From assembly GCA_022361195.1 (NCBI GenBank), contig JAKSBJ010000129.1, positions 1-45,198 of the forward strand: a DNA stretch of 45,198 nt, given 5' to 3'. The position numbers were made by a program, and so were the translations under genes. Positions 1,576 through 26,497 of this stretch are shown here, piece by piece (positions within the stretch are counted from its first letter, which is position 1; the number at the start of each line of letters is the position of its first letter). The notes beneath the pieces were generated by a model. The model worked only from the letters and a program-made list of their open reading frames with translations. It did no database searches and had not been told where the DNA came from. This stretch comes from Flavobacteriales bacterium (lineage in GTDB: Bacteria; Bacteroidota; Bacteroidia; Flavobacteriales_D; Crocinitomicaceae).

Positions 1576-1582
1576 TTAAAAA

Positions 1583-3854: not shown

Positions 3855-3870
3855 AATCGAAAAATTAGTA

Positions 3871-3905
3871 AATCCTCAGCATAAAATTGTTTTACGCTGA
3901 GGATT
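3871..3905 (-). promoter_or_regulatory. Intra-operon stem-loop with 10-bp perfect arms (aatcctcagc / gctgaggatt) and a 15-nt loop, in the 62-bp gap between the 275-aa and 306-aa genes. Possible attenuator or mRNA-processing and stability element.
   Basis: The inverted repeat was read directly from the sequence. On the minus strand it is followed by TACTAATTTTTCG, a weak T-tract. Confidence 0.4.
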
Positions 3906-3916
3906 TTATGGAAATA

Positions 3917-4744
3917 TTACGAAGCCAAAGCCGCCGCATTCGCAGCTGCATATCCAGACTGCAAAGACGTTAGTTTTACCTGAGCCTTTTCAAGGTTAGA
4001 TTGTGCTTCATTTAACTGTTTTGCTGTTAATGTATTAGCATCTTGAGCTTTTTCATAATTCTTCTCAGCTTCCTGATAAGCCTTATGGATTAAGTAAAAC
4101 AAGGATGCCTCCTGATCTTCAGTGGCTTTTCCATCACTATCGGTTCCCGTATAAACCTCCAATAGGTTCACCGCCTGCATAAATTCAAGCGAAGAAATAG
4201 CCTCTGTTTCCTTATTGGATGATTGCGTGGTATAAGTAGACTTTAGAGCGACCAAAGTTGCGGCTACCGCATTATTAGCATCTTGACCGGCTGTTCCCAA
4301 AATGGTGATTAATTCATCAGAAATCAGCGGGTTTTGAGCTTTTCGGCGAATGACTAAATTCGACAACTTCTCAATCATCTCAGCAGAATAAATCAGCTCT
4401 TTAATCATTTGAGTGAGATTCTTTGTCAAATCATCAACCTTAACATCAGTCTCTGACATTTCTTCTAATGCAATTTCAGAACTGTTTTTAAGATCTGTTA
4501 GGTTCTTTAGAACATCCTGAGCTAAATCCCAATTGCTGAGAGCAGTAGCTCTTTTTGCATCAGCTGTTTGTAACAAAGCCGTGAATTTATTCGACTTTTC
4601 GGTTAAGGAAGTAACCATTGCTTCAAATTGTTGAACCGTATATTCAGCATTTCTTACCTCTTCTTCTAAAAGATCTAATTCAGCTTTTTTTCGTTCAGTA
4701 ACCCCGTATCTTTTTTGTGGGGCATTTATTGTGATATTGTTCAT
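3917..4744 (-). CDS. Hypothetical coiled-coil protein, 275 aa, rich in Ala/Ser/Thr/Gln with a heptad-like periodicity. eCIS accessory or cargo candidate.
   Basis: Sequence composition (for example LEEEVRNAEYTVQQFEAMVTSLTEK and LNEAQSNLEKAQVKLTSLQ). It lies inside the operon 25 nt downstream of the 854-aa gene. Confidence 0.45.
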   Translation of the reverse strand: MNNITINAPQKRYGVTERKKAELDLLEEEVRNAEYTVQQFEAMVTSLTEKSNKFTALLQTADAKRATALSNWDLAQDVLKNLTDLKNSSEIALEEMSETDVKVDDLTKNLTQMIKELIYSAEMIEKLSNLVIRRKAQNPLISDELITILGTAGQDANNAVAATLVALKSTYTTQSSNKETEAISSLEFMQAVNLLEVYTGTDSDGKATEDQEASLFYLIHKAYQEAEKNYEKAQDANTLTAKQLNEAQSNLEKAQVKLTSLQSGYAAANAAALAS

Positions 4745-4768
4745 TTTATTTTCTTTTTAAGTTAATTA

Positions 4769-7333: not shown

Positions 7334-7399
7334 AACTTTCGGTTTATTAAATTATTATTCAACTATTTAAAAATCATTTATTTATTAAAACTTATTTAA

Positions 7400-11548: not shown

Positions 11549-14225
11549 TATTTTCTTCGAGGTTTTCTAAATAGAGTTTGATCATTTGAAGCACCAACTT
11601 CCCTGTTGACTTCACCAAATCTTCATCATAGTTTTTATTGGGTCCCTGAAAGCGAAGATTGTTGTGCCAATCAGCAAAATGAGGGATCAGTTTCTCCAAA
11701 CGATGTGTCGTAGCCCTGTAAAAACTACAATTGATTCGTGGTGAAATAGTATCCGCTACAAAGTCTTCAAGAACAGTCTTGAAGGAGTCTTTTGAAAAGC
11801 GAAACACATAATCTGGGAAAATAAAATGCAGTTTATTCTTAAAAATGGGATGATTGGTTGAAACCTCAGCATCACCTCCCCAAGAAGCTTTAATTCCAAG
11901 TTTAACACCACTATCTCCTAAATCTTCAAAATAGGAGGATTCCCAATTTACCCGAGTCTTTTTAGCATGACTACCATCAGCTGTTGTTAAAGTCTTAGCA
12001 TCGTTCAACTTTTCCAGTAAAGAATCTGCCATTTTCTCCAGCTCGTAACAAATCTCAAGGGCTGTTTCGTAGTCATGTATTTCTCCTATCTGCCATACTT
12101 GATCCTCATCATTTTTTTCTATAATAACAATCTGAAAATCGGCTGACTGTAATAGAAGATCACTTTCAATAAAAATGGACCCTTTACGTTCTATCATCAT
12201 CCAATAAGTCTGACTTACCTCATCTTTTAAGGAATCTTCATAATAGTTATCAATAATAAAATTGCGATAGGTTGACCTTAAACCAAAAAGCAGATTCAAT
12301 TTCAACTCAACTGATGAGTAATCGTCAAAATCCTGTTCTGAAAGCTTTTCTGTTTCATCGATAAGTTGCGAGCGAAGAATGAATTCATTTTGTTGTTCTT
12401 CATACAACTCAATCCACATTTTTTCAGTTACCAGAGGCAGTGTTTCCTCAATTTTTCGGCATCCCATAAAATTGTATGCCTTAAACCGATAATAAGAAAG
12501 TAGTCCAATATTTTGGACGTACAGACTCTTAAAGATGACCTTATCCTCCAGTTTATTTGCTGAGAAAGATGAAGTTGAAATAATCTCATCAATTAAATAC
12601 GGAGACTCTCCATGGCGAGCAATTAAATGATCTAAAATTTCATTTCGTCTTTCCAAACCTTCCTGAGATTCTTCAATCGCGCCTCCAACTCCTTTAATGT
12701 AGGTATTGTAAGGATCATTTTTATAAGCTTTCCAACTATCTATTTCCAATTGCTGTGAAGTTGTGGTTTGTAGAGAAAAATCAAACGCTCCCGAATTTTT
12801 TAGTATTGGCCTGATATTCGGAACTTCATAAAGCGATTGATAGAAATAAGAAGGAGAAAAACTTAAAAACGGAGCTGGATATTGTGGATTAGCCAATTCA
12901 TATTGGTCCATTTGTGCAAAAAGGGCTTGTTGATCAAAGGGAGCAGGACAAATTGAATTCTTAAAAGAAAACAACTCATGAACACTGGCCAATTGAGAAA
13001 ACTCGTTCGCCAATACCTGATCAAACAAGGTTAAGTATCCTTTTAGTTGGCGAGAACGGGCAATTTGATAATCAGCCACTCCAGATTCAATAGCGTTTTC
13101 TCCTACTCCAAATATCTCAGGAAAAGTATTTTGGATAGAATAATATTCCTGAATTTCACGATAGGTGCCATCTGGTAATTTAGGGTCAGTATTAACAACA
13201 GACTTGTTTGGGTTATTTGCAACCTCTTTAGTACTAATTCGAGAAAGAACGTTAGTCAGATACGCATTAGTCAACTGCTCCCCCTTCCACATCACTTTTA
13301 TATCTCCCGACTGAATAGAAGAAATAAGATTTACCACAATTAGCTGCTCATCGTTAGAGCTAAGAGCATTCAACTGCTTTGAGTCCTGCGTAAATGCTAT
13401 TTCTTCAACAAAACTGATTCCTTTAATCTCTTGAAGAATCCCAATAATTTCGGAAGTATTAAGATCATTTCGCTTGCTTCCCAAACTTTCGGTTAAGATC
13501 CATCCATTTTGTAATTTAGGTCCATCAAAAATAGAATCTGGAGTAGCTCCTTTACTAATCAAATCATCATAGCTGTACTGGGTAACTCTTGGAAAGAGGT
13601 ATTGATTAATTGCATCCTGAGCTCCTTTAAACAGATCATCCAGTGAATGTTCTGATTCAACTACAAATGTTCCACTAAGACCATAATTCAGCTTTTGAAA
13701 TGGCTTTGGTTTGAGAAACAACTCACCCAAATTTCGACATCGTGAAAATTGATAATATGCCGCTTCGCATATTTGGTCTATTTGCATTTCATCTGAAATC
13801 GTTTCTGAGATAAGCAAATAAGTATGATACAATCCACTTTCGAGATGTACACCTTGGGCCTTAGGAATAATCACAGCATTTTCAACTACCTCTATTCCAT
13901 CAATAATGTATTTTCTAAAATCATTGATAGTTAAAGGAGTTGTTGTCAAAATTTCTTCAGCTGTGTAAAACTGATTTTTAACAATAAGTTGATCATTCTT
14001 ATCAGTAAGAATGTCTTTCATTGGAAAATCGATACAGTACCCTAACTCGGTCAAGGCAAAACACAGCTGATCCAAAATGGTAATTCCTGGATCACTAGGA
14101 TTAAAATTAGTCCAGGAGTTTCCACTGAATTCCTGTAAAAAGGCCAAGCCCTCCTCTTTCAGAAGCTCAAAATTCTGCGTAACCGGCAAAGTCTCATCTA
14201 CTATGTGATACTGTTCTTCGATCAT
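11541..14225 (-). CDS. Large baseplate wedge protein, Afp12/gp7-like (894 aa).
   Basis: It follows the gp6/J-like gene with an 8-nt overlap and has the size expected from conserved gp25-gp6-gp7 synteny. No short diagnostic motif is known to me. Confidence 0.45.
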   Translation of the reverse strand: MIEEQYHIVDETLPVTQNFELLKEEGLAFLQEFSGNSWTNFNPSDPGITILDQLCFALTELGYCIDFPMKDILTDKNDQLIVKNQFYTAEEILTTTPLTINDFRKYIIDGIEVVENAVIIPKAQGVHLESGLYHTYLLISETISDEMQIDQICEAAYYQFSRCRNLGELFLKPKPFQKLNYGLSGTFVVESEHSLDDLFKGAQDAINQYLFPRVTQYSYDDLISKGATPDSIFDGPKLQNGWILTESLGSKRNDLNTSEIIGILQEIKGISFVEEIAFTQDSKQLNALSSNDEQLIVVNLISSIQSGDIKVMWKGEQLTNAYLTNVLSRISTKEVANNPNKSVVNTDPKLPDGTYREIQEYYSIQNTFPEIFGVGENAIESGVADYQIARSRQLKGYLTLFDQVLANEFSQLASVHELFSFKNSICPAPFDQQALFAQMDQYELANPQYPAPFLSFSPSYFYQSLYEVPNIRPILKNSGAFDFSLQTTTSQQLEIDSWKAYKNDPYNTYIKGVGGAIEESQEGLERRNEILDHLIARHGESPYLIDEIISTSSFSANKLEDKVIFKSLYVQNIGLLSYYRFKAYNFMGCRKIEETLPLVTEKMWIELYEEQQNEFILRSQLIDETEKLSEQDFDDYSSVELKLNLLFGLRSTYRNFIIDNYYEDSLKDEVSQTYWMMIERKGSIFIESDLLLQSADFQIVIIEKNDEDQVWQIGEIHDYETALEICYELEKMADSLLEKLNDAKTLTTADGSHAKKTRVNWESSYFEDLGDSGVKLGIKASWGGDAEVSTNHPIFKNKLHFIFPDYVFRFSKDSFKTVLEDFVADTISPRINCSFYRATTHRLEKLIPHFADWHNNLRFQGPNKNYDEDLVKSTGKLVLQMIKLYLENLEENNG

Positions 14226-17200
14226 GCGGCTCTAAAGGTGAAATGATGTTTTATACCCGGAACAAACAACTGGTTTGCTTGCTGGGGAACAATTAATGGA
14301 GTTTGTTGAGCAGCTGGATTTTCATCTGCTTCTAGTATATGGTCAGAAGTAATGAATGAAAGTTCCTGAACTTCCAAAACCCCCTCTATTGATTTTATAA
14401 GTGGTCTAAGCTGCGATTCGCTTATCCCCTGGTCAATTTGTACATGACTTTGACCATCTTGTATCCATGGAGCTAAAAATGTGTTTAATCGTTGATTCAG
14501 TTCCTGCTCCAATCCTCTAATAGCGAAACCTTTTTTAACAACAATTGTTGCTTTAACAGTGACATAAACAGGATTAAAGTTTGCTATATCAAGTTTTGTG
14601 AAAGGCGAAACTTTACTCTGTAAGTAGTCCGTCACTCTCAATTCCAAGCATTCATTTACCAGCGGTAAAAAGGCAGATGGTGAGGCTTCATCCTCTACTT
14701 GCTTGACTAACAATACTTCGGTTTTCCCCTGACTTTTATCATAAATTACTTTGACATAATAAACATCCGGGAAATTCTCTTTAATCAATCTAAAATAATC
14801 TGCCGAACGACCAATTCTACCTTTTGTCGCTAAATGATTACTAACACGCTTGAACATTGCGGTTTCATTCTCAGCTCCTTTCCCGCCAAATGAAGGAAAC
14901 GGTTGAGCCAAAGAAGCTATTTTGGGCATTGGCACAGCAGGAGATGTGATTTTAGATGCAGCCAGCTTAGGAGCAGTTGTATCTGCTAAATAGGCTGTTG
15001 AGCTTCGTTGAAGTTCAATTCCATTTGAATCTAAATAAACTGTCTCAGGAATAGCCCCAAGATCTTCGTTCACCCCTATCGCTAACCAATACTTTTTGGG
15101 AGGCATAAAAACCGTATCAGAAGAAGGGTCTAACGGAATGTCCAGACTTAAAATACCGCTGCAAATAAAATGCTGTGTTCCGTCATTCAATAAAGAACAA
15201 TCTTGCCACCCTTGATCCGTTAATGCACTGTAAGTTATTGGTGATTTAGTATTTGGAATTCCTATTTTTCTGCTGAGTTCATAAAACAGGTTGAGTTCAC
15301 TATTCCCTTCTAAATTCTGTAAATTGATGAGTTGAACTCCCTCCTGCTGAAAAGGAACATAAAGGGGTAAATAGGATGATTCAGTATTTTCTTCCTCCGT
15401 TGATTTTTTCTCCTCTAAAGGAGCTCCCAAAGCAAAATTGGAAATGAAAACAGAGTTATCAACTGAATTATCAAAGGATTTATAGGTTGAAAAAGGCGTA
15501 TAATGAAAACACTCTAAAGGATATTGATCTTCTGTTGATCTAGCCTGCTCAAAAGTATACAACTGACTGGAGCTGTAAGAGAGATTCATTTTTTTCACCT
15601 TTGGTGTGTAAGGGACATTCGCAGATTGCTTTAGCTTCTTACACCAAAGTTTTCGCATTAATGTTTTTGCATTTTGTAATGCGAGATAGGACACCACTTT
15701 TCCATATAGCTCCAAGCCAAACCCAAACCCTGGATTAACCAATGTCATCTTCATAAAACCATCTTTGGTTTTATCTGAAAAGGTTAAAGGTTTACTTTGA
15801 AGACCTGTTAAGGGCTCAAATCCTTTGGGCATTTCATCACAATTGAAATTGGTAGAAGGCGATAAAGCCCCCAATAAACTCTCCTTAAAGAGGTATAAAC
15901 CTTTTTTATGTTTTTCCCATTCTTTTTTCTCTGATTTTCGCTTTTTGCGAGCATGTTTATCAGATAATGTGCATTGATCCACTTCATCCACCTCCAAATC
16001 AGTCCAAATTCCATTTTGGAGATAATCAAAGTTGACTCTGAAACTTTTGTTGGAATACTGAAAAGCTGCAATATTCCAACCTAACAAATTACTTAACAGC
16101 CAATTGATGGTGCGTTTAAACCAAGTCGGTTTTTTTGATCCGGTACTATCAAGGACATCATAATGTTTCAAGTACTTATTGTACTGTTCGTAATATTTTT
16201 TGAAATCTTCAGGAAGTCCATCCCAATCCAGCTCTATGCAAATTTGCCCTTCAGGTTTACTAAAGATTTCTGAGCTTCCAACAAAAAAGCTGGAATTAAC
16301 CGCAGGTGTTGGACCCAATAACTCGAAAGGTTTTTTAGCACTTAATTTTCCATTATCATTCTCAAGTGCCATTGATTTCATTCCACTCACTTCTACATCT
16401 ACCTCCAAACTTTCAATTTCGGGAGGATTGTTTAAATCCTTAAATTGAGAAAAGTGAATTTTAAATAGCGGCCAGGAAGCCTGATAGCCATCCGGATTCT
16501 TTTTAAAAGCCTGTATAGCTGGATCACCTGTATCTAAAGAAACCTCAATAAGTAACTGTCGAACCTTTTTATCCTGATCTTTTTCTACATCAACGTTCGG
16601 AAATGTCAATTTACCCTTAAGATCAAACCAGCTTTTTTCAGTACTCAAAAAATAATCGGCATTGAATAAATCCACCAGATCAGTTTCTTCCTTAAAGGTG
16701 AAGGTTAGTTTTAAAGTCCTTGTTCCGTCTTGTAAAAAGAACATTGGTGAAGCAAAGGCTACTGCCATATCTTGCCGAACTGCAGTAGTTTTATCTCCTC
16801 CAAAACCTGGCCAGGAAATGAGTTTTCCCTTTTCATTTTTTTTGAGTTTGTTTGGCGTAATTTCTTCAGAAAGATATAGTTCTGAAAGTCCGGAATCACT
16901 ATTAATCTGAAACAAAGTAGAAAGCGTCCCAATTTTAGCAGGACTTAAAATAGTCTCCTTTAAAGTTTCAAATAAAATGGGTTGCTTACTAGCATTTAAC
17001 CCTCCTTTAAACTCTGTTCCTTGTGCCAGAACTAGGAAATCTGTTTTAGGAGCTAGTTTGGCTGTAACAAAAACCTTATCAGGCTGAGCATTCTTTTGAT
17101 TTTGTTTAAGAATATCTCTGTAGTAAAAATTAAGATGTTTTTTACTGAGACCATTCATTGCCTCGGTATAAAGTGACAATAATCTTGTAAAAACCCGAAC

Positions 17201-18010
17201 TAAAATGGTATCAGGAAACTTATTCTTCTCCGTTTTTAAGTTTTCAAACTCCTGGGTAGCCTGATCAATATTATGTTTATAAAATCCAAAGAGATCATTT
17301 CCAGTGGATAGCAGTCTGGAGAATATGGTCAGGGTTGAATTATCTTGTAAAGGGTATTCCAAATTGATAATTTCCCAAGGAGAACCTTCATCAACATCAT
17401 CATTGTTTTGCCCCCATAATTCAGGTACATAGGTTCCTCCTTTTTTCCACAAGTCAGGATCAAAATCCTCAAAAAGATTTAACTGTACTGCCTTAATTCC
17501 TTGAATTATGCCCGTAATGTTTAAGGCTGTTCTTAAACTCAAAAGTTCGGTAAGTAATTGAGCATATTTACTTTTTACTTCTTGAAACAAGTAGTTTTCT
17601 AGCGGATAATCATGATTATGTTTTTTCATGTAATGTGTCCACTGCTCTATTTCAAGGTATATTTCGGTATAGAGATCAAATAACTGATTGACCAGCTTTC
17701 CTAATTGTTCTTCGGAAATATTACCGGAATTTACGTCTTCACTTTGCGATACAATTTGAAGGAAAAGGTTTCGCTTAACAGTATATCGGCTTTTGGCAAT
17801 ATAAGCGAGAAGTATAATAGGGTCTTTGAGTAAGAGTGGCTGCCAACTACTGTATATTTTGTTTTCCTGATCATAAAAGTTCAAAACATCCGAAAAATCT
17901 GCCATGAACTGAAGAAAATCCTGATCTAACCTTCCATCTATAACGGCCGTTGTAGGATTCAATGCTTGTTCCAGCGATTTAAGGGCTTTATTTTGATCGA
18001 TTTGAATCAT
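14222..18010 (-). CDS. Baseplate J / gp6-like protein, Afp11-like (1262 aa).
   Basis: It lies directly downstream of the gp25-like gene with a 5-nt gap. The gp25 then gp6-like order is conserved across contractile tails, eCIS and T6SS (TssE-TssF). Confidence 0.5.
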   Translation of the reverse strand: MIQIDQNKALKSLEQALNPTTAVIDGRLDQDFLQFMADFSDVLNFYDQENKIYSSWQPLLLKDPIILLAYIAKSRYTVKRNLFLQIVSQSEDVNSGNISEEQLGKLVNQLFDLYTEIYLEIEQWTHYMKKHNHDYPLENYLFQEVKSKYAQLLTELLSLRTALNITGIIQGIKAVQLNLFEDFDPDLWKKGGTYVPELWGQNNDDVDEGSPWEIINLEYPLQDNSTLTIFSRLLSTGNDLFGFYKHNIDQATQEFENLKTEKNKFPDTILVRVFTRLLSLYTEAMNGLSKKHLNFYYRDILKQNQKNAQPDKVFVTAKLAPKTDFLVLAQGTEFKGGLNASKQPILFETLKETILSPAKIGTLSTLFQINSDSGLSELYLSEEITPNKLKKNEKGKLISWPGFGGDKTTAVRQDMAVAFASPMFFLQDGTRTLKLTFTFKEETDLVDLFNADYFLSTEKSWFDLKGKLTFPNVDVEKDQDKKVRQLLIEVSLDTGDPAIQAFKKNPDGYQASWPLFKIHFSQFKDLNNPPEIESLEVDVEVSGMKSMALENDNGKLSAKKPFELLGPTPAVNSSFFVGSSEIFSKPEGQICIELDWDGLPEDFKKYYEQYNKYLKHYDVLDSTGSKKPTWFKRTINWLLSNLLGWNIAAFQYSNKSFRVNFDYLQNGIWTDLEVDEVDQCTLSDKHARKKRKSEKKEWEKHKKGLYLFKESLLGALSPSTNFNCDEMPKGFEPLTGLQSKPLTFSDKTKDGFMKMTLVNPGFGFGLELYGKVVSYLALQNAKTLMRKLWCKKLKQSANVPYTPKVKKMNLSYSSSQLYTFEQARSTEDQYPLECFHYTPFSTYKSFDNSVDNSVFISNFALGAPLEEKKSTEEENTESSYLPLYVPFQQEGVQLINLQNLEGNSELNLFYELSRKIGIPNTKSPITYSALTDQGWQDCSLLNDGTQHFICSGILSLDIPLDPSSDTVFMPPKKYWLAIGVNEDLGAIPETVYLDSNGIELQRSSTAYLADTTAPKLAASKITSPAVPMPKIASLAQPFPSFGGKGAENETAMFKRVSNHLATKGRIGRSADYFRLIKENFPDVYYVKVIYDKSQGKTEVLLVKQVEDEASPSAFLPLVNECLELRVTDYLQSKVSPFTKLDIANFNPVYVTVKATIVVKKGFAIRGLEQELNQRLNTFLAPWIQDGQSHVQIDQGISESQLRPLIKSIEGVLEVQELSFITSDHILEADENPAAQQTPLIVPQQANQLFVPGIKHHFTFRAA

Positions 18011-18015
18011 GTAAT

Positions 18016-18444
18016 TTATCCAAGATTTGTTCCTTCTTTTAAATGAAAAGGGAATACATAATTGTGGCGGGTGTTGGTCTGATTATAAACATAAACCACC
18101 GTAATTTCTACTAATCCCAATTGTAGATCAGGATAGTCTACATCCACTTCCTGAACAGTAATTCGTGGTTCGTGATTTCGTAAACTGCTTTCAACAGCAT
18201 CTCTAATTTCACCTTTCAGTGTTTCATCCATTTTTCGGAAAAAGAACTCCTGTAACCCCGAACCAAAATCGGGTTCCATACAACGTTCACCTTTCTTTGT
18301 TTTCAGGATTACATCAATGGAATTATTAATGTTGTTCTCGTATTGAGTTACATCTAATTCAGCATTTCCCGCAGAAAAACTGATAGGAAAGGCCCAACCC
18401 GATCCTAAAAAATGATTATCCTGTTTTGACAATTGTTTATCCAC
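18016..18444 (-). CDS. gp25-like baseplate wedge protein (GPW_gp25 / TssE-like, Afp9-like), 142 aa.
   Basis: Matching motifs are LGSGWAFPISF, PDFGSGLQEFFF and EPRITVQEVDVD. Size is about 140 aa. Confidence 0.8.
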   Translation of the reverse strand: MDKQLSKQDNHFLGSGWAFPISFSAGNAELDVTQYENNINNSIDVILKTKKGERCMEPDFGSGLQEFFFRKMDETLKGEIRDAVESSLRNHEPRITVQEVDVDYPDLQLGLVEITVVYVYNQTNTRHNYVFPFHLKEGTNLG

Positions 18445-18736
18445 CTATTTCAACATTAAATGCACCTAAAACTATTTCTCCTCCGTGGGCAGTAGTATCA
18501 CCCACCCTAGCTGCCGGCATTCCACCAATCATAACTGTAGCCGATCCTTTCACAATGGCATCTGGTGGTCCAACACAAATCAACTCATCGCCTACTCTGG
18601 CGGCTGGTAATCCGCCAATTAAAACAGTAGGTTCACCGGGACCAACAACGGGTCCTCCAACATGTGGAATTGGAACCGGAGCTGGAGTTTCCATCGGACA
18701 TTCATGAAAATCTGTTAATCGTGCTGCTGGAGGCAT
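18437..18736 (-). CDS. PAAR-repeat spike-tip protein, 99 aa, with no toxin extension.
   Basis: Three PAAR-like motifs are present: PPAARLTD, LPAARVGD and MPAARVGD. Confidence 0.85.
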   Translation of the reverse strand: MPPAARLTDFHECPMETPAPVPIPHVGGPVVGPGEPTVLIGGLPAARVGDELICVGPPDAIVKGSATVMIGGMPAARVGDTTAHGGEIVLGAFNVEIGG

Positions 18737-18747
18737 ACTTTTGGTTT

Positions 18748-20547
18748 TTAGTTAATCATTACCATGGCTCCTTTCAAGGTCAATTCCATTCCTGCATTGA
18801 CTTGAGCCGTTTCACTTCCTTCGGCCGAATATTGCATATCAGCCGTTTCTTTTATATTCATTCCACTGATCTCTACATCTCCTCCTGAGGCTTCTACTGT
18901 CACTCCTTGTGTTCCTTTGATGGAGACTTTTTGATCAGCTTCTATATTGATATCTTTTTCACTTTTTATAGTGATTCCACTTTCGGACATCACAATGCTG
19001 TTGTTGTTTTGATCCTGAATGGTGATTTGCTTGTCTTCATCACTCAAAATCATGGTGTTTTTAGATGGAGTTTCTATTGTAAACACCTTATTTTCATCGT
19101 CGAACTTTACTTGAATTCCGGATTTGGAAACAATAGCTTTTATGGAATTTTGTTCATTCGGATCCAATCCATCAAAAGGCTTGATATTATCACTGCTATA
19201 AAGACTTCCGAGAATAACCGGATAACGAGGATCTTCACTTAAAAAGCCCAATACAACTTCATCTCCCACTTCAGGCAAAAAGAAAGCTCCTGCTCCGGAA
19301 GTAGAATAGAAATTGGCCAAACGAGCCCAAATTCCTTCACCATTTTGGTCAAAAAGCGGAACATCCACTAAAATTCGGTACTGACTGTCCGGATCTTCAT
19401 ACATCTGCTTCACCGTTCCATTAAAAAGTCCTCTCGCCCCTGGTAATAAGCCTGCTGCTGGTGGAGCCATTACATCCGGTTCTTCTGAAAACCAAATGGA
19501 CGACATTCCTACTGTTGTTTCGGTCAACCAATTTCCTTCACTAAAATCGTGTCGAACTCCTGAAACATAATGGTCGCCATTAAAACGATCTCCCAAGCCT
19601 TGAAGGGTAACATAGGTCCCTGGATTGACTAAATTGGTCCCTTGTGTTACTGCGGTTCCAATGATTTTGGAATATTCACTCTTAATCATTTGAGCTTTGG
19701 ACCAATTGGTTAAGTCATCTGACGTTTGATAAGCTGAAGTTTGTAAGTCAAATTCAGACAATCCAACAACCTCGGATAAAGTCTTTGAAGATAAGTTTCC
19801 TGCTCCAGCTACATCGTTTGATGCTTCTCCCGAAATAATGGCTTGTGTTTTATAGTCCCAGGCTTGTGCTTTAACACTTCCTAACTGACTTACGGAATTT
19901 AAATCTCCTCTGAATTCATGTAGATTATCTCCATACTTAATAGTCAAAACTGATGAACTATTGGCATCTGGAGCCTCTACACTTACCTTTCCATCCAAGA
20001 CATTAACAATTAAGCCATTTGCTTCTGATCGCGTCAAAATAAAATCCCAATCGGTAGCATAATACTGTACCTGTTCAGGCCATTCAGTAGTTGTCGCTGT
20101 CACATCAGCGCTCAAATCTGAATAGTTCCCAATAATGGTGCTCATGATATCACTATCCTTTTGTTTGGAATACGTGAGACTTTTACGCCCCACTACCATT
20201 TTGATAGCAGCATCACGGCATTCAATCTCTAAAGCTGATCCTATCATGGGATCAACTCTTAAACTTTGTCTGGTGATTATCCCTTTAAAAATTTGTTCAT
20301 TTTTTGTGTCATAACCGGCTTCAATAACTACTTCAGCTCCTGGCACAAAGGTTTCGGAAGAACTGGCTTCAAATGTTTCCGTACTCGCATCACCATCCAA
20401 AACAACAATTTTAGCCTCTGGAATTCTATTCGTTGAGCGTTCTATTGTAATCGAATAAATGCGTGATTCGTCCGGAATGGCGCTTCCTCCAACTTTTACA
20501 GTATAGGTGGCTATTCCGCCAGTTGTTATGTTATCTGACGCTGCCAT
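18748..20547 (-). CDS. VgrG-like spike (gp27/gp5-like, Afp8-like), 599 aa, with a C-terminal beta-helix and no effector extension.
   Basis: The N-terminal gp27-like region reads YTVKVGG...ITIERSTNRIPEAKIVVLDGD. The C-terminal tract carries repetitive V/I-x-V/I-x beta-helix repeats (ITIQDQNNNSIVMSESGITIKSEKDINIEADQKVSIKGTQGVTVEASGGDVEISG). Confidence 0.75.
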   Translation of the reverse strand: MAASDNITTGGIATYTVKVGGSAIPDESRIYSITIERSTNRIPEAKIVVLDGDASTETFEASSSETFVPGAEVVIEAGYDTKNEQIFKGIITRQSLRVDPMIGSALEIECRDAAIKMVVGRKSLTYSKQKDSDIMSTIIGNYSDLSADVTATTTEWPEQVQYYATDWDFILTRSEANGLIVNVLDGKVSVEAPDANSSSVLTIKYGDNLHEFRGDLNSVSQLGSVKAQAWDYKTQAIISGEASNDVAGAGNLSSKTLSEVVGLSEFDLQTSAYQTSDDLTNWSKAQMIKSEYSKIIGTAVTQGTNLVNPGTYVTLQGLGDRFNGDHYVSGVRHDFSEGNWLTETTVGMSSIWFSEEPDVMAPPAAGLLPGARGLFNGTVKQMYEDPDSQYRILVDVPLFDQNGEGIWARLANFYSTSGAGAFFLPEVGDEVVLGFLSEDPRYPVILGSLYSSDNIKPFDGLDPNEQNSIKAIVSKSGIQVKFDDENKVFTIETPSKNTMILSDEDKQITIQDQNNNSIVMSESGITIKSEKDINIEADQKVSIKGTQGVTVEASGGDVEISGMNIKETADMQYSAEGSETAQVNAGMELTLKGAMVMIN

Positions 20548-21224
20548 TAATTTGGTTGAACAATTGGTGGAAAAATCAATTTAGTTCCTCCCATAAGGTG
20601 GCGGAACTTATTTAGGCCGTTGTATTTTGCTACCTGGATATAATAGGAATCATCATTCCAAATTTTTTGGCACAATTGAGGAAGAGTATCACCATCCACT
20701 ACATCCACCAAGTGACTCACATCTGGAGATTCCTGCCCATCTACTTTTTTAACCGTTGATGGCGATAGGTATTGACTAAAACTTAAGGATACTTTAGCTC
20801 TTAAAGGACTTCCATCAGGCTTAAAGAGCGTATAACTGGTGTCAAAAGAGGTTAATACACCTTTAAAGGTGATGTTTTTACCCCATTGAATTTTGACGAA
20901 GTTTGGACGGTGAATTTTTCCATTATAGGTAAAAACGATATTCTCAAGAGCCGTTATTTCCTTGTACATGACCGTTCGTTTGGAGTCTACTACTCCGGTA
21001 CAGTCAATAACAATATCAAAAGACAATTTATCGCTGGGAGTACTCTTGTACTTTTGAGAAGCAGAACTGGAATCGGGAGATTGTTGCTCATTGTATTCAA
21101 TGGCTCGAGTCCATTTAATGGATTCGGGGTTAATCATTACCGTGTAAGGATCACCACTAAAGGCCGATGAGAATTCCTCATCAGTATATCCCGTAATTTT
21201 CATCAATTCTAAACTCGATCCCAT
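20547..21224 (-). CDS. LysM-domain tube-initiator / baseplate hub protein (Afp7-like), 225 aa.
   Basis: The C-terminal LysM reads VDGDTLPQLCQKIWNDDSYYIQVAKYNGLNKFRHLMGGTKLIFP. It lies between the tube genes and the spike, as in Afp/PVC. Confidence 0.75.
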   Translation of the reverse strand: MGSSLELMKITGYTDEEFSSAFSGDPYTVMINPESIKWTRAIEYNEQQSPDSSSASQKYKSTPSDKLSFDIVIDCTGVVDSKRTVMYKEITALENIVFTYNGKIHRPNFVKIQWGKNITFKGVLTSFDTSYTLFKPDGSPLRAKVSLSFSQYLSPSTVKKVDGQESPDVSHLVDVVDGDTLPQLCQKIWNDDSYYIQVAKYNGLNKFRHLMGGTKLIFPPIVQPN

Positions 21225-21228
21225 TCTT

Positions 21229-21399
21229 TTATCTCTTGTGTTTTTTTCGATTCATATTTTGTGAAATCAACTTTCGGCATTCATTCACAATTTGAGTTTT
21301 TAATTGTCCCAGTTCTTTTTCAGATACTGTTCCTTCGCCATTGGACATAGAAGTCCTAACCTCCGTTCGGATGGTGATTTCTTTTATTTCTACAGGCAT
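21229..21399 (-). CDS. Small 56-aa ORF (MPVEIKEITIRTEVRTSMSNGEGTVSEKELGQLKTQIVNECRKLISQNMNRKKHKR), a positional equivalent of Afp6/Pvc6. Not in the ORF track.
   Basis: I translated it by hand. The ATG is at 21399-21397 and the TAA at 21231-21229. It fills the otherwise empty 185-nt gap between the tube and LysM genes. Afp/PVC loci carry a small ORF at this position. Confidence 0.4.
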   Translation of the reverse strand: MPVEIKEITIRTEVRTSMSNGEGTVSEKELGQLKTQIVNECRKLISQNMNRKKHKR

Positions 21400-21409
21400 A
21401 CTTTTAGCG

Positions 21410-21874
21410 TTAGTTGAATAGTTTGGACCACTTCTTTTGAGGCCCTACTTCAAAATAGGTGTAAGCCAGTTCAATGGTTTCAATCAATACACTGTTTTCT
21501 GTCGACTTAAAATCGGACAAAGCGTATTTAATTGGATAGGCATTGTGAAAAGTCCAGCTTCTGGATGGAGTTCCCTTTGCGTTGAGCAAAGAGACAGTTA
21601 CATCGTGTGGCTGAACGGCCTTTGCCAATCCCTGATCCATGGTTGTTGAACACCATCCCAATAATTGAGAGCCCTTGGTAACCACAGCTCGCTTCAGTAC
21701 TAAATTTTGACCTGAAGCAATGGTGGGAAGACGGTATTTAAAGCGATTCTCCCCACCACAGGTAACTTCTTCAACTGCCAGTTCCTTTGACAAGCCGGAC
21801 ACTTCTTGAAAAGCAGCATCCTCACCTTTAAAAGAAAGCTTGAAATAAAAGCTAACTGGATAATTAAGAGCCAT
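21410..21874 (-). CDS. Tail tube protein (gp19/Hcp-like, Afp5-like), 154 aa.
   Basis: Motifs YPVSFYFKLSF and AAFQEVSGLS are present. The size matches a tube protein. Confidence 0.8.
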   Translation of the reverse strand: MALNYPVSFYFKLSFKGEDAAFQEVSGLSKELAVEEVTCGGENRFKYRLPTIASGQNLVLKRAVVTKGSQLLGWCSTTMDQGLAKAVQPHDVTVSLLNAKGTPSRSWTFHNAYPIKYALSDFKSTENSVLIETIELAYTYFEVGPQKKWSKLFN

Positions 21875-22328
21875 TTGTTATGGTCAGTTTCTCATGAGCA
21901 ACTTCCAATGTATCTACAGCCACCTCATTTCCGTCCGACTTAAGATCAGTACTGGTAATTTTAGTTGGCCAGGCATTGTCCAATTGCCATTGCATGGTTA
22001 CTTTTCCACTTTCGTCCAATAATTTTATCAAAACAGTTCGTCGTTTGATCGTATTCATGGAAATTTCCTTGTGCCAGTTCCAAAAGGTATTGTCATTGAC
22101 AAAAACACCTCTTTTCATGGTAATGTTTCCATACTTTACTATTCCGGGCATTTTTTCTGTAGAAAATTCAGGACTATTACTTTTTCTGTACTCAATAATC
22201 TGATTTTCAACATCCATACCGGATACTTCTTGAAAAGCTACACCTTTCATTTCGGTTCCAAGATCTACTTCAAATCGGAACTTCGGCATGGGCCAGGTTG
22301 CGCCTTCTTTACTTCCGTCATCTGCCAT
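21864..22328 (-). CDS. Tail tube protein (gp19/Hcp-like, Afp1-like), 154 aa.
   Basis: Motifs PKFRFEVDLG and VAFQEVSGMD are present. It is a paralogue of the adjacent tube gene. Confidence 0.8.
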   Translation of the reverse strand: MADDGSKEGATWPMPKFRFEVDLGTEMKGVAFQEVSGMDVENQIIEYRKSNSPEFSTEKMPGIVKYGNITMKRGVFVNDNTFWNWHKEISMNTIKRRTVLIKLLDESGKVTMQWQLDNAWPTKITSTDLKSDGNEVAVDTLEVAHEKLTITNGS

Positions 22329-22371
22329 AATGGTATATTTTAATGGTTTTTATTCGTGATTAAATTTTTGA

Positions 22372-23943
22372 TTAAGATGATTTTGCCATTTGCTGTTCAA
22401 ACTCAAGAACAATAAATTCAGCCGGATGGACAACTGCTACTTTCACCGCTACTTTCATGAATCCGTTGAGAATATCATCAGAGGTCATCGTAGTCCCTAA
22501 TCCACATTGAACTGAAAAAGCATCAGCAGCAGTTGCACCTTGTAATCCACCTTCTTTCCAAATAGAAGTCAGGAAACTTGAAATCATAGACTTCACTCCT
22601 TCCCATGTATTTTTATCATTTGGCTCAAATACATAAGCATGAGCGGCTAGTTTACAGGATTGTTCTAAGAAGGTCATCGTTCGTCTAACCGGAAGGTATT
22701 TCCAGTCTAAACTATTACCGTCTAGTGTTCTTGCACCCCAAACCAAAATTCCTAATCCGTTAAAGAATCGAATGGCATTAATTGACTTTCCAGAAACAGC
22801 ATCTATATTCAAATCAGCCTGCTGACTTTCTGATAATCGAATTGGTAAACTTACCGTTCCAACAATACTCGTATTAGCCGGTGCATACCAAACTCCTTCT
22901 TGATTATCAGTAGTTGTAATAACTCCAGCCATACCTCCACTGGGAGGAAGAATATTGGCATCAGATAAAACATGCTTCACCATTTGGGAATACGTTTTAC
23001 TTGCATTAATCAATGCATTTTGTCCCTGAGTGGTAGACAATTCACCACTTTCAATTTTAGAGAAAATAGTTGCAACGCTTTGATTTGGATTATCAGCCGG
23101 ATTCAATAATGGCTCCAATTGTTTTAAATCTCCCCCAAATAAATTGGTAAAATCAATGTCACTATTTTGCATGATTGTAGTACCAATAAAAGGGTAATAA
23201 GCTGTTCCATAATTCAGACCATTGGCACCTGTACTATTTCGGAACGTCTCAATATCATTTGTATATAAAATTGGGTCTGGATCACGTCCTCCAATGATGT
23301 CAAAAATGCTGACCGCCGTTTGCATCTCTGTGCACTGTAAAAGCATTTCCTGCATCAAGGTTGCGTTATTATCAACCGACATTAAAGTTGCTTCAGGACA
23401 GATGTACATCGTTGGTTCTTGCTCGTTTTTGAGTAAAGCCAAACCGTTCATCAAATCATTCAATTGTACATTCGGATTCACAATTTGATCACCCGGAGTC
23501 ATTGGATTTTTAGAAGGATCTCCGTACGTTCCAACCGATACAATATAAGCATCTCCTCCTCCATTTTCATAAAACAGCTTAATACTGTTATAGAGATAGT
23601 AGATGGTATTAGGATCTGGAACAATCGAATAAAAATCACCATCAATTAGCATATAATCGCCTTTTTCTGGTTTACTCTTTTGTTTCACGAAATAATACTC
23701 CGGATTGTACTGTTTTGCAGGAGGTGCCGGAGGTGATGGATTCGGATAACAGAAGATTGCCTGAAACTCAGCAAAAGAGGTAATCTTTTGCGGTACATTA
23801 GTGTATGACTTTCCTTCATACATTGCCTGAGGGGTATATCCGATAAAGGCCGGAACCGCTGTGGCTACGGGAACCACTGAATTCGGAAAAGCATTTATCT
23901 CGTCGATATAAACACCCGGAGATTTAATGGTTGATAAATTCAT
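22372..23943 (-). CDS. Contractile sheath protein (single sheath gene), 523 aa.
   Basis: The N-terminus reads KSPGVYIDEINAFPNSVVPVATAVPAFIGYT. The C-terminal domain carries ILVWGARTLDG. Both are typical sheath-family signatures. Confidence 0.85.
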   Translation of the reverse strand: MNLSTIKSPGVYIDEINAFPNSVVPVATAVPAFIGYTPQAMYEGKSYTNVPQKITSFAEFQAIFCYPNPSPPAPPAKQYNPEYYFVKQKSKPEKGDYMLIDGDFYSIVPDPNTIYYLYNSIKLFYENGGGDAYIVSVGTYGDPSKNPMTPGDQIVNPNVQLNDLMNGLALLKNEQEPTMYICPEATLMSVDNNATLMQEMLLQCTEMQTAVSIFDIIGGRDPDPILYTNDIETFRNSTGANGLNYGTAYYPFIGTTIMQNSDIDFTNLFGGDLKQLEPLLNPADNPNQSVATIFSKIESGELSTTQGQNALINASKTYSQMVKHVLSDANILPPSGGMAGVITTTDNQEGVWYAPANTSIVGTVSLPIRLSESQQADLNIDAVSGKSINAIRFFNGLGILVWGARTLDGNSLDWKYLPVRRTMTFLEQSCKLAAHAYVFEPNDKNTWEGVKSMISSFLTSIWKEGGLQGATAADAFSVQCGLGTTMTSDDILNGFMKVAVKVAVVHPAEFIVLEFEQQMAKSS

Positions 23944-23973
23944 ATTTTGTTTCTGTTTATTTAGTTATTGTAT

Positions 23974-24792
23974 TTATACATAGACATACATTGGAGAAGC
24001 CAAATCACCATTGTTAGAGGCATTCTTTATCTCCAAGTTCATGGGGTCAGGATTTGGTAATGCCTGAAAAATTGTTTTCTGAATTTTTCGAGAAGCAGTC
24101 AATCTGCCTGTCCCACTTTGATTATTGACCAATTTAAACTTGTATTTGGGACGATAACTCAAAGGAATGAGGGTTAAGCCCGAACTGAATAATAAAGCTG
24201 TTTGTTTGTTGGGTAATATTACCTCTTCTGGTCCTTCAAATAAAACCTCTTCTGAACCAGTAATTTCTGGCTCAGAAAGGTCTAAAGAACTCTGATTAAT
24301 AATGTAATAGTTCCATTGCGTTTTACGAGCAGTAAAGGAAAGATCAAATATCTCCGTGCTTAAAATGTCTTTAAAATAAAGACGAATTATAGCCAACTTT
24401 GTATATTCTCCCTGTTCAAATCTCCCCTTCCCTAAATCAATTTGGCCTTCATCAACTTTAGTTCCTTCATTGCTATTAAAAACAAGACGCCCCAGTTCAT
24501 TTACCGGAACGTCAGTATATTGATAAAAGCTATTTTCTTCAGTTACTAACTCAAATACAAAGGCATTTTCACCAGTAATTTTTTCGACATATTGAAACCG
24601 ATCCTTTAGATCGCCCGAGTTTTGTGTATATAATCTAATGATATTATCTCTAAAGTATGTAACAGTGAATCCATATTTAGAAACCCATTGCTCAGTAGCT
24701 GCAGACAGCTTTAATTGAATGGGATAAGTCATCTCCAAATCAAAATAACTGTGGCTTATTTTCACCTCTGATATTTTTGTATAGCTAATCAT
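23974..24792 (-). CDS. Hypothetical protein, 272 aa, between the cap-like and sheath genes. eCIS-associated, function unknown.
   Basis: ORF-track ORF with a 4-nt overlap onto the upstream gene. No motif recognised. Confidence 0.45.
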   Translation of the reverse strand: MISYTKISEVKISHSYFDLEMTYPIQLKLSAATEQWVSKYGFTVTYFRDNIIRLYTQNSGDLKDRFQYVEKITGENAFVFELVTEENSFYQYTDVPVNELGRLVFNSNEGTKVDEGQIDLGKGRFEQGEYTKLAIIRLYFKDILSTEIFDLSFTARKTQWNYYIINQSSLDLSEPEITGSEEVLFEGPEEVILPNKQTALLFSSGLTLIPLSYRPKYKFKLVNNQSGTGRLTASRKIQKTIFQALPNPDPMNLEIKNASNNGDLASPMYVYV

Positions 24793-25364
24793 TGATTTGG
24801 TAAAACTGGATTGGATTGGTTGGTAACCGGAGCGACAAAACCTTGTGTATTTTCTGACTCAATAGTGATTAATCTCATCTTATAAATCACAGAAGGAACA
24901 TATTTCGCTCCCATTGCACTCCAAAGGTTATGCATCTCGAAATAACTGATTTTCTCTACTTCAAATTCAAGGCGATCAATTCCCTCGGGAAGATTTGAGT
25001 ACGAAGAAGAATTAACCACTGGATTTATCTGGAAAAACTGAATTCCCGAATTGAGAAACTTGAGTGTTTCTGTATAATCATCAAAACTTGAAGACACTAA
25101 TAGGTCTATATTATACCTTTCGGGCCGTCTTACATTTGAGAAGCTTCCATCCGACAAGCGTTGGTTACGTACATAAAACTGGCGATTAGTTTCCTGAGCA
25201 ATATTGATCATAGAAATGACCAACTTATTTTGATTTGGCTTGGGAACCGAACCATCGGCTTCAATAAGGTTATTGATCAACACTTTTGATTCGTTCAAAC
25301 CAAATTGATTACGTACAAACTGATCCAATGAATTGGCAGTAAACTGTAGCACTGTGTCGATCAT
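24789..25364 (-). CDS. DUF4255-like protein, candidate tube/sheath terminator cap (Afp16/Pvc16-like N-domain), 191 aa. First gene of the operon.
   Basis: It has the size and N-terminal pattern (MIDTVLQFTANSLDQFV...) of cap-family proteins that often open eCIS loci. The assignment is tentative. It is preceded by a 206-bp promoter region. Confidence 0.45.
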   Translation of the reverse strand: MIDTVLQFTANSLDQFVRNQFGLNESKVLINNLIEADGSVPKPNQNKLVISMINIAQETNRQFYVRNQRLSDGSFSNVRRPERYNIDLLVSSSFDDYTETLKFLNSGIQFFQINPVVNSSSYSNLPEGIDRLEFEVEKISYFEMHNLWSAMGAKYVPSVIYKMRLITIESENTQGFVAPVTNQSNPVLPNQ

Positions 25365-25453
25365 CTTTATATAAGGTTTACTTTCTCGTTTTGGGTTTGT
25401 GAAAAAAGTCTGATCGTAAAGTTATTAGGAAGCCATTCGGAAAAAGAATTTCA

Positions 25454-25514
25454 AAATAGACGATCCATAGACAGCTTTTTAAATGATTAAAAAAAGCATA
25501 GACAAAACATAGAC
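25454..25514 (-). promoter_or_regulatory. Candidate operator or promoter of the eCIS operon. Two pairs of direct repeats (ATAGAC / CATAGACA on the plus strand, TGTCTATG on the coding strand) sit at 25455, 25466, 25497 and 25508. Spacing is 11 bp within each pair and 42 bp between pairs.
   Basis: The repeats were read directly from the sequence. They lie 90-150 bp upstream of the first eCIS start codon and downstream of the LuxR-family gene. Confidence 0.35.
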
Positions 25515-25570
25515 ATGGCGTTTTGGGCAAAAAAACTCCCTCAAACAGAACTCTTTATAAAGGCTGGATT

Positions 25571-26497
25571 TTAGACTAGATCCGAATAGATTTCACGATT
25601 TCCTCTACTCTCCTGAATGGGAGTTGAAGTTCTTGAAGAAAAAGATTGTAAATAGTTTCTCAGGTTTTGATCCTTAGACAAGGCCATTTTCTTTTTGAGG
25701 CGGTATTTGTGCGTCCGAACACTTTCGGAATTAATGCTCAACAGACGTTTAATGTCTTCGGTAGACATATTCATCTTTAAATAGCAGCAATATTTTAAAT
25801 CACGTGAAGTAAGGCCTGGAAATTTTTGGGAGAGCCTTTCGAGGAACTGTGGATTAATACTTTCAAAATAGATTTTAAAGTCATCCCAATGTTTTTCATC
25901 CGAAGTAGACACTTTTATTGAATTCATAATGGACATCAACTCTCTGCGGGTTGATTCATCTACATTTGAAATTAAATCACTAATGCGCCTTTTTACCTGG
26001 ATTAAAGTTTGATTCCGTTTCTCAATTTCCATAACATGCCGGCTAAGATTACGACTGTAATTGGACTGTTGATCAACCAGACTACCTGCAGGAACAAATG
26101 ATTTTTGTAAGGGTTGTTCCCTTAAACGTGCGAGTTTGAGAATAGATCGGACCTTTAAACAAAAACTATGAGGCTGTTCCAAAATATCTTCTCGTTCAAA
26201 AAAGACAATATTATGATCTTCACAACGCACTGGTTGAACATGATGCATTTTATTAATACATAAAACCGGAATGCTAAATTTCCTCCAATGAACATTCAAA
26301 CCATTTAAAGCACTTTGGTTATCCTCAAAACTCATAAGAAGAAGAGAAGGCTTAATGCTTTTGGTAATGGATAATACCTCAGCATGACGACTTGCTGTGA
26401 CAAAATCAGCTTCTATTTCAGACCTTAATAATTGCATGATTGCAACTAGTTTATCTGGTCTGTCACAGCAAAGAATTATGCAGGCACGCTTTGTCAT
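25571..26497 (-). CDS. LuxR-family transcriptional regulator with a degenerate, receiver-like N-domain (atypical response regulator), 308 aa.
   Basis: The C-terminal HTH reads STEDIKRLLSINSESVRTHKYRLKKKM, which is LuxR/GerE type. The N-terminal region has a receiver-like layout, but CDRPD replaces the DD pair and LLLMSFEDN replaces the phospho-acceptor LxxD. Confidence 0.65.
   Translation of the reverse strand: MTKRACIILCCDRPDKLVAIMQLLRSEIEADFVTASRHAEVLSITKSIKPSLLLMSFEDNQSALNGLNVHWRKFSIPVLCINKMHHVQPVRCEDHNIVFFEREDILEQPHSFCLKVRSILKLARLREQPLQKSFVPAGSLVDQQSNYSRNLSRHVMEIEKRNQTLIQVKRRISDLISNVDESTRRELMSIMNSIKVSTSDEKHWDDFKIYFESINPQFLERLSQKFPGLTSRDLKYCCYLKMNMSTEDIKRLLSINSESVRTHKYRLKKKMALSKDQNLRNYLQSFSSRTSTPIQESRGNREIYSDLV

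Follow-up and report, generated by a model that had tools for sequence, protein, structure and literature searches.

A pseudo-receiver LuxR-type protein as a candidate regulator of an extracellular contractile injection system operon in a Flavobacteriales genome

The locus and its regulator gene

The window, meaning the whole stretch of DNA analysed, comprises 45,198 nucleotides of contig JAKSBJ010000129.1 (GenBank assembly GCA_022361195.1) from a Flavobacteriales bacterium. It carries the complete gene cluster of an extracellular contractile injection system (eCIS) and, head-to-tail with it on the same strand and 206 bp upstream of its first gene, Pvc16_N, a gene for a 308-aa protein, hereafter the regulator (Table 1). 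The N-terminal domain of the regulator is almost certainly an aspartate-less pseudo-receiver, its C-terminal domain is a LuxR/GerE-type helix-turn-helix (HTH), and the 206-bp gap holds four direct repeats and a candidate promoter. To our knowledge, the on-switches of eCIS are largely unknown and most eCIS operons are silent in culture. An eCIS-specific role of the regulator is very likely, because the gene order regulator, Pvc16_N, sheath, tubes follows directly on the same strand in 69 of 80 species loci and because the repeat and promoter architecture of the intergenic region is conserved. The first-pass annotation, which had placed the gene immediately upstream of the eCIS operon and had named it from this placement as the prime candidate for pathway-specific control, is thus supported on both points.

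The open reading frame (ORF) and the strings CDRPD (residues 11-15) and LLLMSFEDN (residues 52-60), on which that annotation had built, are present as it quoted them. An identical public protein (P0001) is annotated as 288 aa; it starts 20 codons late, at M21, leaves out positions 26438-26497 of the window, and so is without strand β1 and without the conserved Asp12. Several homologues of the regulator are likewise annotated with truncated starts. The ATG at 26497 is the true start, because the homologues keep the N-terminal strand (ILIGxDxxxxL, or ILIG(C/S)D, in the alignments of 21 and of 99 relatives) and because AlphaFold2 (AF2) predicts this extra strand as β1 with a local confidence score (pLDDT) above 85. 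A search of a large protein collection gave 419 relatives, and those with the highest scores are mostly 280-300 aa long; 99 of the 419 were aligned, and all family statistics given below refer to these 99 members. Homologues of the regulator are labelled "CsgD family" by JGI.

Table 1. Coordinates of the regulator, the intergenic elements and the other features (window positions unless another locus is named)
Feature	Position	Strand	Basis or remark
Regulator CDS, 308 aa	25571..26497	-	stop codon 25571-25573; ATG start 26497, not the annotated M21
Aspartate-less pseudo-receiver domain (almost certain), residues 1-127	26117..26497	-	AF2, Foldseek, PhoP alignment, column statistics, L140 alignment, N-domain profile
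Disordered linker (131-140) and long helical, putative coiled-coil region (140-215)	25853..26116	-	alignment, AF2
LuxR/GerE-type HTH module, residues 216-283	25649..25852	-	Pfam, NCBIfam, alignments, Foldseek, family profile
C-terminal tail, residues 284-308	25574..25648	-	non-conserved, low-confidence; alignment, AF2
Repeat R1, TGTCTATG	25515-25508	-	
Repeat R2, TGTCTATG	25504-25497	-	
Repeat R3, TGTCTATG	25473-25466	-	
Repeat R4, CGTCTATT	25462-25455	-	
Distal direct-repeat pair R1-R2	25497..25515	-	inferred positions about -103 to -85
Proximal direct-repeat pair R3-R4	25455..25473	-	inferred positions about -61 to -43
Candidate sigma-A -7 box TAACTTTA, consensus TAnnTTTG	25417..25424	-	60 nt before the Pvc16_N ATG
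eCIS gene cluster	218..25364	-	inferred target; Pfam/homology and synteny
Pvc16_N, first eCIS gene	24789-25364	-	
Conserved 272-aa protein	23974-24792	-	
Sheath	22372-23943	-	
Two tubes, gp19-type	21864-22328 and 21410-21874	-	
CIS_tube	20547-21224	-	
VgrG-like spike	18748-20547	-	
gp25	18016-18444	-	
Baseplate J	14222-18010	-	
894-aa protein	11541-14225	-	
Tape measure (CIS)	7400-11548	-	followed by unknowns
AAA ATPase	1583-2944	-	
GH25 lysozyme	218-1009	-	at the cluster's 3' end, beyond the AAA ATPase
Response_reg + LytTR regulator	29333-30043	+	
Response_reg + LytTR regulator	30052-30801	-	
TPR + His_kinase sensor	30798-32678	-	
7TMR-DISM receptor fused to coiled coil and LuxR-type HTH, L104	163-1887		TGTCTACGCTTTGTCTACGC within about 70 nt after the gene
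7TMR-DISM receptor fused to coiled coil and LuxR-type HTH, L148	678-2579		TGTCTACGCTTTGTCTACGC within about 70 nt after the gene
HExxH protein region, L097	6272-7498		one family with L117; repeat pair TGTCTACGCTTTGTCTACG about 70-90 nt upstream
HExxH protein region, L117	4276-5930		one family with L097; repeat pair TGTCTACGCTTTGTCTACG about 70-90 nt upstream

Domain structure of the regulator

The AF2 model, built from the 99-sequence alignment, has a mean pLDDT of 84.9 and a global template-modelling score (pTM) of 0.47, the latter so low that the relative arrangement of the domains is undefined. Residues 5-127 are predicted in the order β1-α1-β2-α2-β3-α3-β4-loop-β5-α5 (β1 5-11, α1 14-27, β2 30-35, α2 38-47, β3 52-56, α3 60-70, β4 78-82, loop 83-97, β5 98-102, α5 103-127), with the five strands in parallel order and the loop in the place of α4, and the receiver-like layout that the first-pass annotation had ascribed to the N-terminus is borne out by this model. 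A disordered linker (131-140) and long helices (140-176, 181-197, and 200-214) follow, and residues 218-270 are modelled as a helix-turn-helix domain. Conserved motifs of the coiled-coil region are SRYVLELDQK and W204/F207/Y210-F211. In Foldseek, the best matches of the model in the PDB are the NarL/FixJ-type proteins StyR, DosR, LiaR, EvgA, NarL, RcsB, VraR, and FixJ. Isolated receiver domains align with template-modelling scores of 0.73-0.78 and a root-mean-square deviation of about 3 Å, and KaiA, which has a known pseudo-receiver, is among the matches.

A homologue with a canonical receiver, which decided the reading of the N-domain as a degenerate receiver, turned up by chance in a metagenome scan. 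The protein of this locus (L140) is 317 aa long, has a Response_reg domain (91 bits), and shares the coiled coil and the HTH of the regulator (GerE 29.9 bits). In BLASTP, the regulator matches it with 1e-35 and 29% identity over residues 7-283, and a profile of the family N-domain only scores 27.5 bits on it; of 900 shuffled controls, none scores above 5.8 bits. The alignment with L140 and, independently, that of the family profile with the Bacillus subtilis PhoP receiver agree on all five catalytic positions: the DD pair corresponds to C11-D12, the phospho-acceptor Asp to S56, the conserved Thr after β4 to N82, and the conserved Lys after β5 to E103. Four of the five catalytic residues are therefore lost in the regulator and only D12 is kept.

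Family-wide, position 11 is Cys, Ser or Tyr, and D12 is kept in 99% of the members; position 56 is Ser (41), Cys (34), Tyr or Ala, and in none of the 99 members Asp or Glu. Position 82 is Ser or Thr in 52% of the family, and no Lys follows β5; Lys or Arg accounts for at most 3% at positions 100-103. The loss of the phospho-acceptor Asp claimed in the first-pass annotation is confirmed by these data, and the alignment proposed there as a check revealed no intact acceptor Asp at a shifted position among the 99 members. Its claim that the acidic pocket is replaced holds for the first Asp, with C11 in its place, but not for D12, so that the pocket has degenerated without being replaced in full. 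The former active-site face stays strongly conserved (D12, F57, which is invariant in 100% of the members, R58, N60, Q61, P77, C80, and E104), and this pattern suggests that the former active-site surface is still used.

Standard sequence models do not flag the N-domain as a receiver. Response_reg (PF00072) matches none of the 99 members at E ≤ 0.01, while the two LytTR regulators of the window reach 64-72 bits with this model; a weak NCBIfam NarL match covers residues 3-69. A pseudo-receiver is defined as a receiver homologue in which one or more of the five active-site residues are missing, and the aspartate-less (ALR) subset as lacking the phosphorylation-site Asp (PMC12632262). By this definition, and because of the full-length homology with L140, the N-domain profile, the Foldseek matches, and the residue losses, the N-domain is almost beyond doubt an aspartate-less pseudo-receiver and the protein an atypical response regulator.

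The C-terminal domain had been called a clear LuxR/GerE HTH, which overstates the match. Pfam GerE (PF00196) gives 16.3 bits (E 0.0075) on the regulator, under the gathering threshold of 23.5 bits, and is matched only below threshold in 89 of the 99 members (best E 8.2e-5). NCBIfam finds the C-terminus of BT3442_fam (6.9e-10) on this module, and MctR and CsgD on residues 217-282. Pfam and NCBIfam alone were rejected as a basis for identity, with the GerE match below threshold, only weak NarL, MctR, and CsgD matches, and neither set decisive. The HTH is nevertheless judged genuine, because of the NarL/FixJ matches in Foldseek, the matches of the family profile to the HTH of EsrB (E 0.008) and of EvgA, and the L140 homologue, which passes the GerE cutoff. 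The module reads LTxxDLKYCCYLKMNMSxxDI..L.IN.ESVRTHKYRLKKK and is nearly invariant across the family.

Intergenic repeats and genomic neighbourhood

Four TGTCTAYG repeats (R1-R4) stand in the same orientation on the minus strand in the gap between the regulator and Pvc16_N. Inside each pair the repeats are spaced 11 bp apart, and R3 follows R2 after 31 bp, so that about three helical turns lie between the pairs. The pattern GTMTAYN5GTMTA occurs twice in the 45-kb window, both times in this intergenic region, where 0.05 occurrences are expected. The plain count of GTCTAT(G) is not enriched over the whole window; the signal lies in the local, phased clustering. TGTCTA is present in 68 of 70 orthologous intergenic regions, at 6.1 per kb compared with 0.24 per kb in 1.5 Mb of flanks, and two pairs with 11-bp spacing are present in 64 of the 70. 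The paired pattern occurs 120 times over all loci: 99 times at the regulator-eCIS junction in forward orientation and 21 times elsewhere in 1.5 Mb. R2 and R3 lie 30-33 nt apart in 55 loci but 20-21 nt apart in eight, a difference of one helical turn.

Downstream of R4, a TAnnTTT[A/G] box is placed at 38 nt in 55 and at 37 nt in five of 63 loci; in the window this distance is 37 nt, counted from the G of R4. No conserved -33 element was found between R4 and the box in the orthologous intergenic regions. The flavobacterial sigma-A -7 element sits at -12 to -5 (PMC9723704), and if the box at 25424-25417 is such an element, the transcription start site would therefore lie near 25412 and the repeats at about -103/-92 and -61/-50. 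The layout, with sites on one face of the helix, a rigid distance, and a promoter without upstream element, looks activator-type. A scan for sigma-70 promoters and terminators showed no terminator between the regulator and the operon and, where promoters of Bacteroidetes are concerned, was uninformative. Autoregulation through the repeats was considered and rejected: no repeat pair precedes the regulator in the window, and only three loci have one within about 700 bp upstream.

An exact-match metagenome scan for the 19-mer TGTCTACGNTTTGTCTACG, meant as a specificity test, gave 74 loci. The full architecture of four repeats and -7 box was found only beside members of the regulator family. A repeat pair by itself is thus no diagnostic mark, unlike the four repeats together with the -7 box. 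The repeat pair also follows the genes of L140 (canonical REC) and of L104 and L148 (7TMR-DISM), whose proteins have other sensor domains but share the coiled-coil and HTH module of the regulator. A Flavobacterium paralogue of the regulator (L055) is followed by the pair GTCTATAATTTGTATA at +221. Upstream of two HExxH protein genes of one family (L097 and L117), the pair is found again; the L097 protein matches eCIS_core (DUF4157) weakly, at 19.2 bits and below cutoff, and the L117 protein matches Agro_virD5 only and no eCIS_core Pfam model. These genes are possible unlinked eCIS effector targets.

Two further kinds of 19-mer matches were observed in the same scan. On contigs with a G+C content of 0.48-0.60 (L082, L087, L123, L125, and L131, also L103 and L110), the 19-mer precedes a box of the type GGTATCATA, after which comes a conserved GC-rich stretch …ACGTGGTGGGGCCCACGTTGCAGACACCGG…GGAAGGGGGACTTCCGCGACCGG; this element may be a promoter plus a structured leader. 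L081, L098, L099, L107, L109, and L118, several of them from metagenome Ga0126342, have tandem 11-bp arrays (TGTCTACGGTT or TGTCTACGTTT), probably satellite DNA unrelated to the regulator.

The 80 loci of the synteny sample, one genome per species, were gathered from the regulator side and span Flavobacteriales, Sphingobacteriales, Chitinophagales, and Cytophagales-type organisms. The 11 loci without the common gene order comprise one contig end (L043), nine Kordia-type paralogues, and the Flavobacterium paralogue. The Kordia-type paralogues share upstream PD40/ThiF/DUF4132 genes with the eCIS locus of Kordia algicida. One of them (L003, region 5606-13073) has unrelated genes downstream, namely small convergent ORFs for Cys/Pro-rich peptides and genes for a beta-lactamase-like protein and a DUF2589 protein, and the Flavobacterium paralogue (L055, region 10862-13506), without eCIS alongside, is followed by three tandem proteins with phage-tail-collar domains.

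The regulator is an orphan, as the first-pass annotation had suggested, without a cognate kinase in its neighbourhood. Clustering of the ORFs within 6 kb upstream revealed no family common to more than 11 of 81 loci and no kinase among these families, and no second DNA-binding gene is conserved at the locus in the same clustering. A canonical two-component system of two LytTR regulators and a TPR-His_kinase lies 3-6 kb upstream in the window. Its kinase is the sole one in the window, and the gene overlaps that of its own LytTR regulator. Across the other loci the kinase shows no conservation, and LytTR genes turn up again in a few of them only; the system was rejected as partner of the regulator, since its kinase pairs with LytTR and lacks such conservation. 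At the far end of the eCIS cluster, the GH25 lysozyme is a candidate lysis/release or effector gene. Further upstream of the regulator, mnmE (trmE, 33637-35010, minus strand) has one in-frame TGA at 34369-34371 (…QSFQY*NASKNGVPVAIVGAPNSGKS…), which splits it into ORFs of 213 and 193 aa; a nonsense mutation, recoding, or an error in sequencing or assembly may lie behind it.

Mode of action and relation to known systems

The best explanation of these data, held with moderate confidence, is that the regulator is a phosphorylation-independent, pathway-specific activator of the eCIS operon that acts via the intergenic repeats. Binding of the regulator to the TGTCTAYG repeats is probable: no other DNA-binding gene is conserved at the locus, the full architecture stands only beside members of its family, and the repeat pair recurs after genes that share its HTH module. 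An activating role is rather more likely than a repressing one. Dimers formed through the coiled coil would bind head-to-tail on both 11-bp-spaced pairs (25455-25515), with all four sites on one face of the helix. The bound protein would then stand just upstream of a sigma-A promoter with a good -7 box and without a -33 element, where it could recruit RNA polymerase and so activate the operon. Its activity may depend on how much of it is present or on a non-phosphoryl signal received at the former active-site face, for which a ligand, a partner protein or redox are candidates.

Several points weigh against this explanation. The GerE score of the regulator falls short of the Pfam cutoff, and the box is assigned to sigma-A, with the start site derived from it, from consensus only. 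The nine Kordia-type paralogues (L002-L006, L009, L011, L015, and L039) have no adjacent eCIS and no repeat pair downstream. Most of the 74 matches to the 19-mer are unrelated, being 11-bp satellites, coding sequence or a high-GC promoter-like element. Also, LuxR-type HTH proteins usually bind inverted repeats, and direct repeats with 11-bp periodicity are a hallmark of the OmpR/PhoB winged-helix regulators. Binding of direct repeats by a LuxR-type protein does have a precedent in MalT.

Among the alternatives, the one that survives best, itself unlikely, is that the regulator binds the same repeats as a repressor or dual regulator, keeping a costly, lysis-linked eCIS silent until a signal arrives. 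The general view is that bacteria restrict eCIS production tightly (review PMC12961389), the four sites over about 60 bp could support looping or oligomerisation, and read-through from the regulator gene, with no terminator before the operon, might need damping. However, none of the four sites reaches downstream of about -43 or overlaps the -7 box or the inferred start site, the missing -33 element is typical of activator-dependent promoters, and a distance to the -7 box that is fixed within 1 nt in 60 of 63 loci is what would be expected for contact with RNA polymerase.

The direct repeats could instead belong to another factor with its gene elsewhere, for example a response regulator of the OmpR/PhoB type, with the local LuxR-type protein acting at a different site or in a different role. 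Repeats of 7-8 bp in direct orientation at 11-bp periodicity resemble Pho boxes (CTGTCAT-N4-CTGTCAT), and five of the high-GC contigs, which are non-Bacteroidota (L082, L087, L123, L125, and L131), carry the 19-mer without such a regulator nearby. Restriction of the four-repeat and -7 box architecture to the regulator family makes this quite improbable, as does the recurrence of the repeat pair after the L104, L140, L148, and L055 paralogues, where the sensors differ and the HTH module is common. Moreover, no pho/pst-type gene was found downstream of any Bacteroidota-like match to the 19-mer, and no other DNA-binding protein is conserved at the locus.

A working receiver, phosphorylated at D12, at E58/D59 or at a Ser or Cys by a remote kinase such as that at 30798-32678, could be argued from the 99% conservation of D12, from E58-D59 two to three residues past the canonical site in the window protein, from the histidine kinase 4.3 kb upstream of the regulator, and from the kinases that Geller et al. 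report upstream of 9% of eCIS-adjacent GerE genes, but is highly improbable. The family consensus has R/N in place of E58/D59, none of the 99 members has an acidic residue at the acceptor position, the Thr and Lys for phosphoryl chemistry are absent, and the kinase of the window, which overlaps its own canonical LytTR gene, is not conserved at other loci, with LytTR genes at only a few.

Beyond the preferred explanation, that of a phosphorylation-independent activator, a wider reading may be considered, which is tentative and whose parts are doubtful when taken jointly. In it, the regulator would be the master activator of the major Bacteroidota eCIS lineage and would belong to an undescribed, Bacteroidota-wide class of sensor, coiled coil, and HTH proteins, all reading TGTCTAYG tandems just downstream of their own genes. 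Its degenerate receiver would be repurposed to sense a ligand, a partner protein, or redox via the invariant Cys80 and Cys237/238, and its regulon would reach unlinked eCIS effector genes, such as the HExxH genes described above. If this wider reading is true, eCIS clusters that are otherwise silent should come on once this single protein is supplied or activated.

The regulator is a new, apparently overlooked member both of the eCIS-adjacent LuxR-type regulators and of the aspartate-less atypical response regulators, and the putative four-repeat operator with its candidate promoter is newly recognised and deeply conserved. A regulator encoded at the locus, together with a precisely placed and conserved putative operator, is a directly testable handle on eCIS control. 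The aspartate-less pseudo-receivers, a poorly understood group, also gain a well-defined family and a canonical sister protein to compare it with. Literature searches gave no paper on the regulator family, its operator, any Bacteroidota eCIS regulator, or BT3442.

The link of GerE regulators with eCIS is already published at the domain level. Geller et al. 2021 (Nat Commun, PMC8213781) found that GerE-domain genes adjoin 25.8% of eCIS loci, 9% with upstream kinases, and called the GerE gene the first conserved eCIS regulator. As in that class, a LuxR-type HTH gene beside an eCIS operon is proposed here as a transcriptional regulator. The class of Geller et al. is defined by Pfam PF00196, and some of its members are canonical Response_reg and GerE proteins with upstream kinases; neither a pseudo-receiver nor an operator is described there. 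The eCIS loci of Kordia algicida, Pedobacter jeongneungensis, and Dokdonia pacifica are in their catalogue (PMC8213781), and the K. algicida orthologue KAOT1_18602 (139914-140768, beside afp16) is listed without a Pfam domain in the supplementary table. The pseudo-receiver family was apparently missed by this survey, because it lies below the GerE cutoff and because this orthologue is listed without a Pfam domain; Pfam-based eCIS surveys have thus passed over it.

Among the atypical regulators, the well-known CsgD and VpsT (PMC12632262) likewise combine a receiver-fold N-domain without catalytic residues with a LuxR-type HTH, and their activity is independent of Asp phosphorylation. The regulator differs from CsgD in that no significant sequence match exists in the N-domain, the NCBIfam CsgD match covering the HTH only, and from both in a coiled-coil region of about 75 residues between the domains, in the absence of helix α4, and in a putative operator of direct repeats. 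The VpsT-type motif for binding of cyclic di-GMP, W[F/L/M][T/S]R, is absent from the family consensus, where the sole invariant Trp is W204 in HWDDF.

With the NarL/FixJ regulators StyR, DosR, LiaR, EvgA, and NarL, the best structural matches over both domains, the regulator shares the domain order. Unlike them, it has no cognate kinase, its helical linker is much longer, and its receiver-like domain is without the phospho-acceptor Asp, the Thr, and the Lys. A further likeness is to the proteins of L140, L104, and L148 and to the BT3442_fam module, which have the coiled coil and HTH, the W..F..YF...P.F motif, and a recognition helix like ESVRTHKYRLKKK; the genes of L140, L104, and L148 are, like the regulator, also followed by a TGTCTACGnTTTGTCTACG pair. 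These three differ from the regulator in functional-looking sensors, namely a REC domain with DD, D, T, and K intact or a seven-transmembrane (7TM) receptor, in the lack of an adjacent eCIS, and in only one repeat pair downstream. The layout common to the family in Bacteroidota is a sensor domain, a coiled coil, and a LuxR-type HTH.

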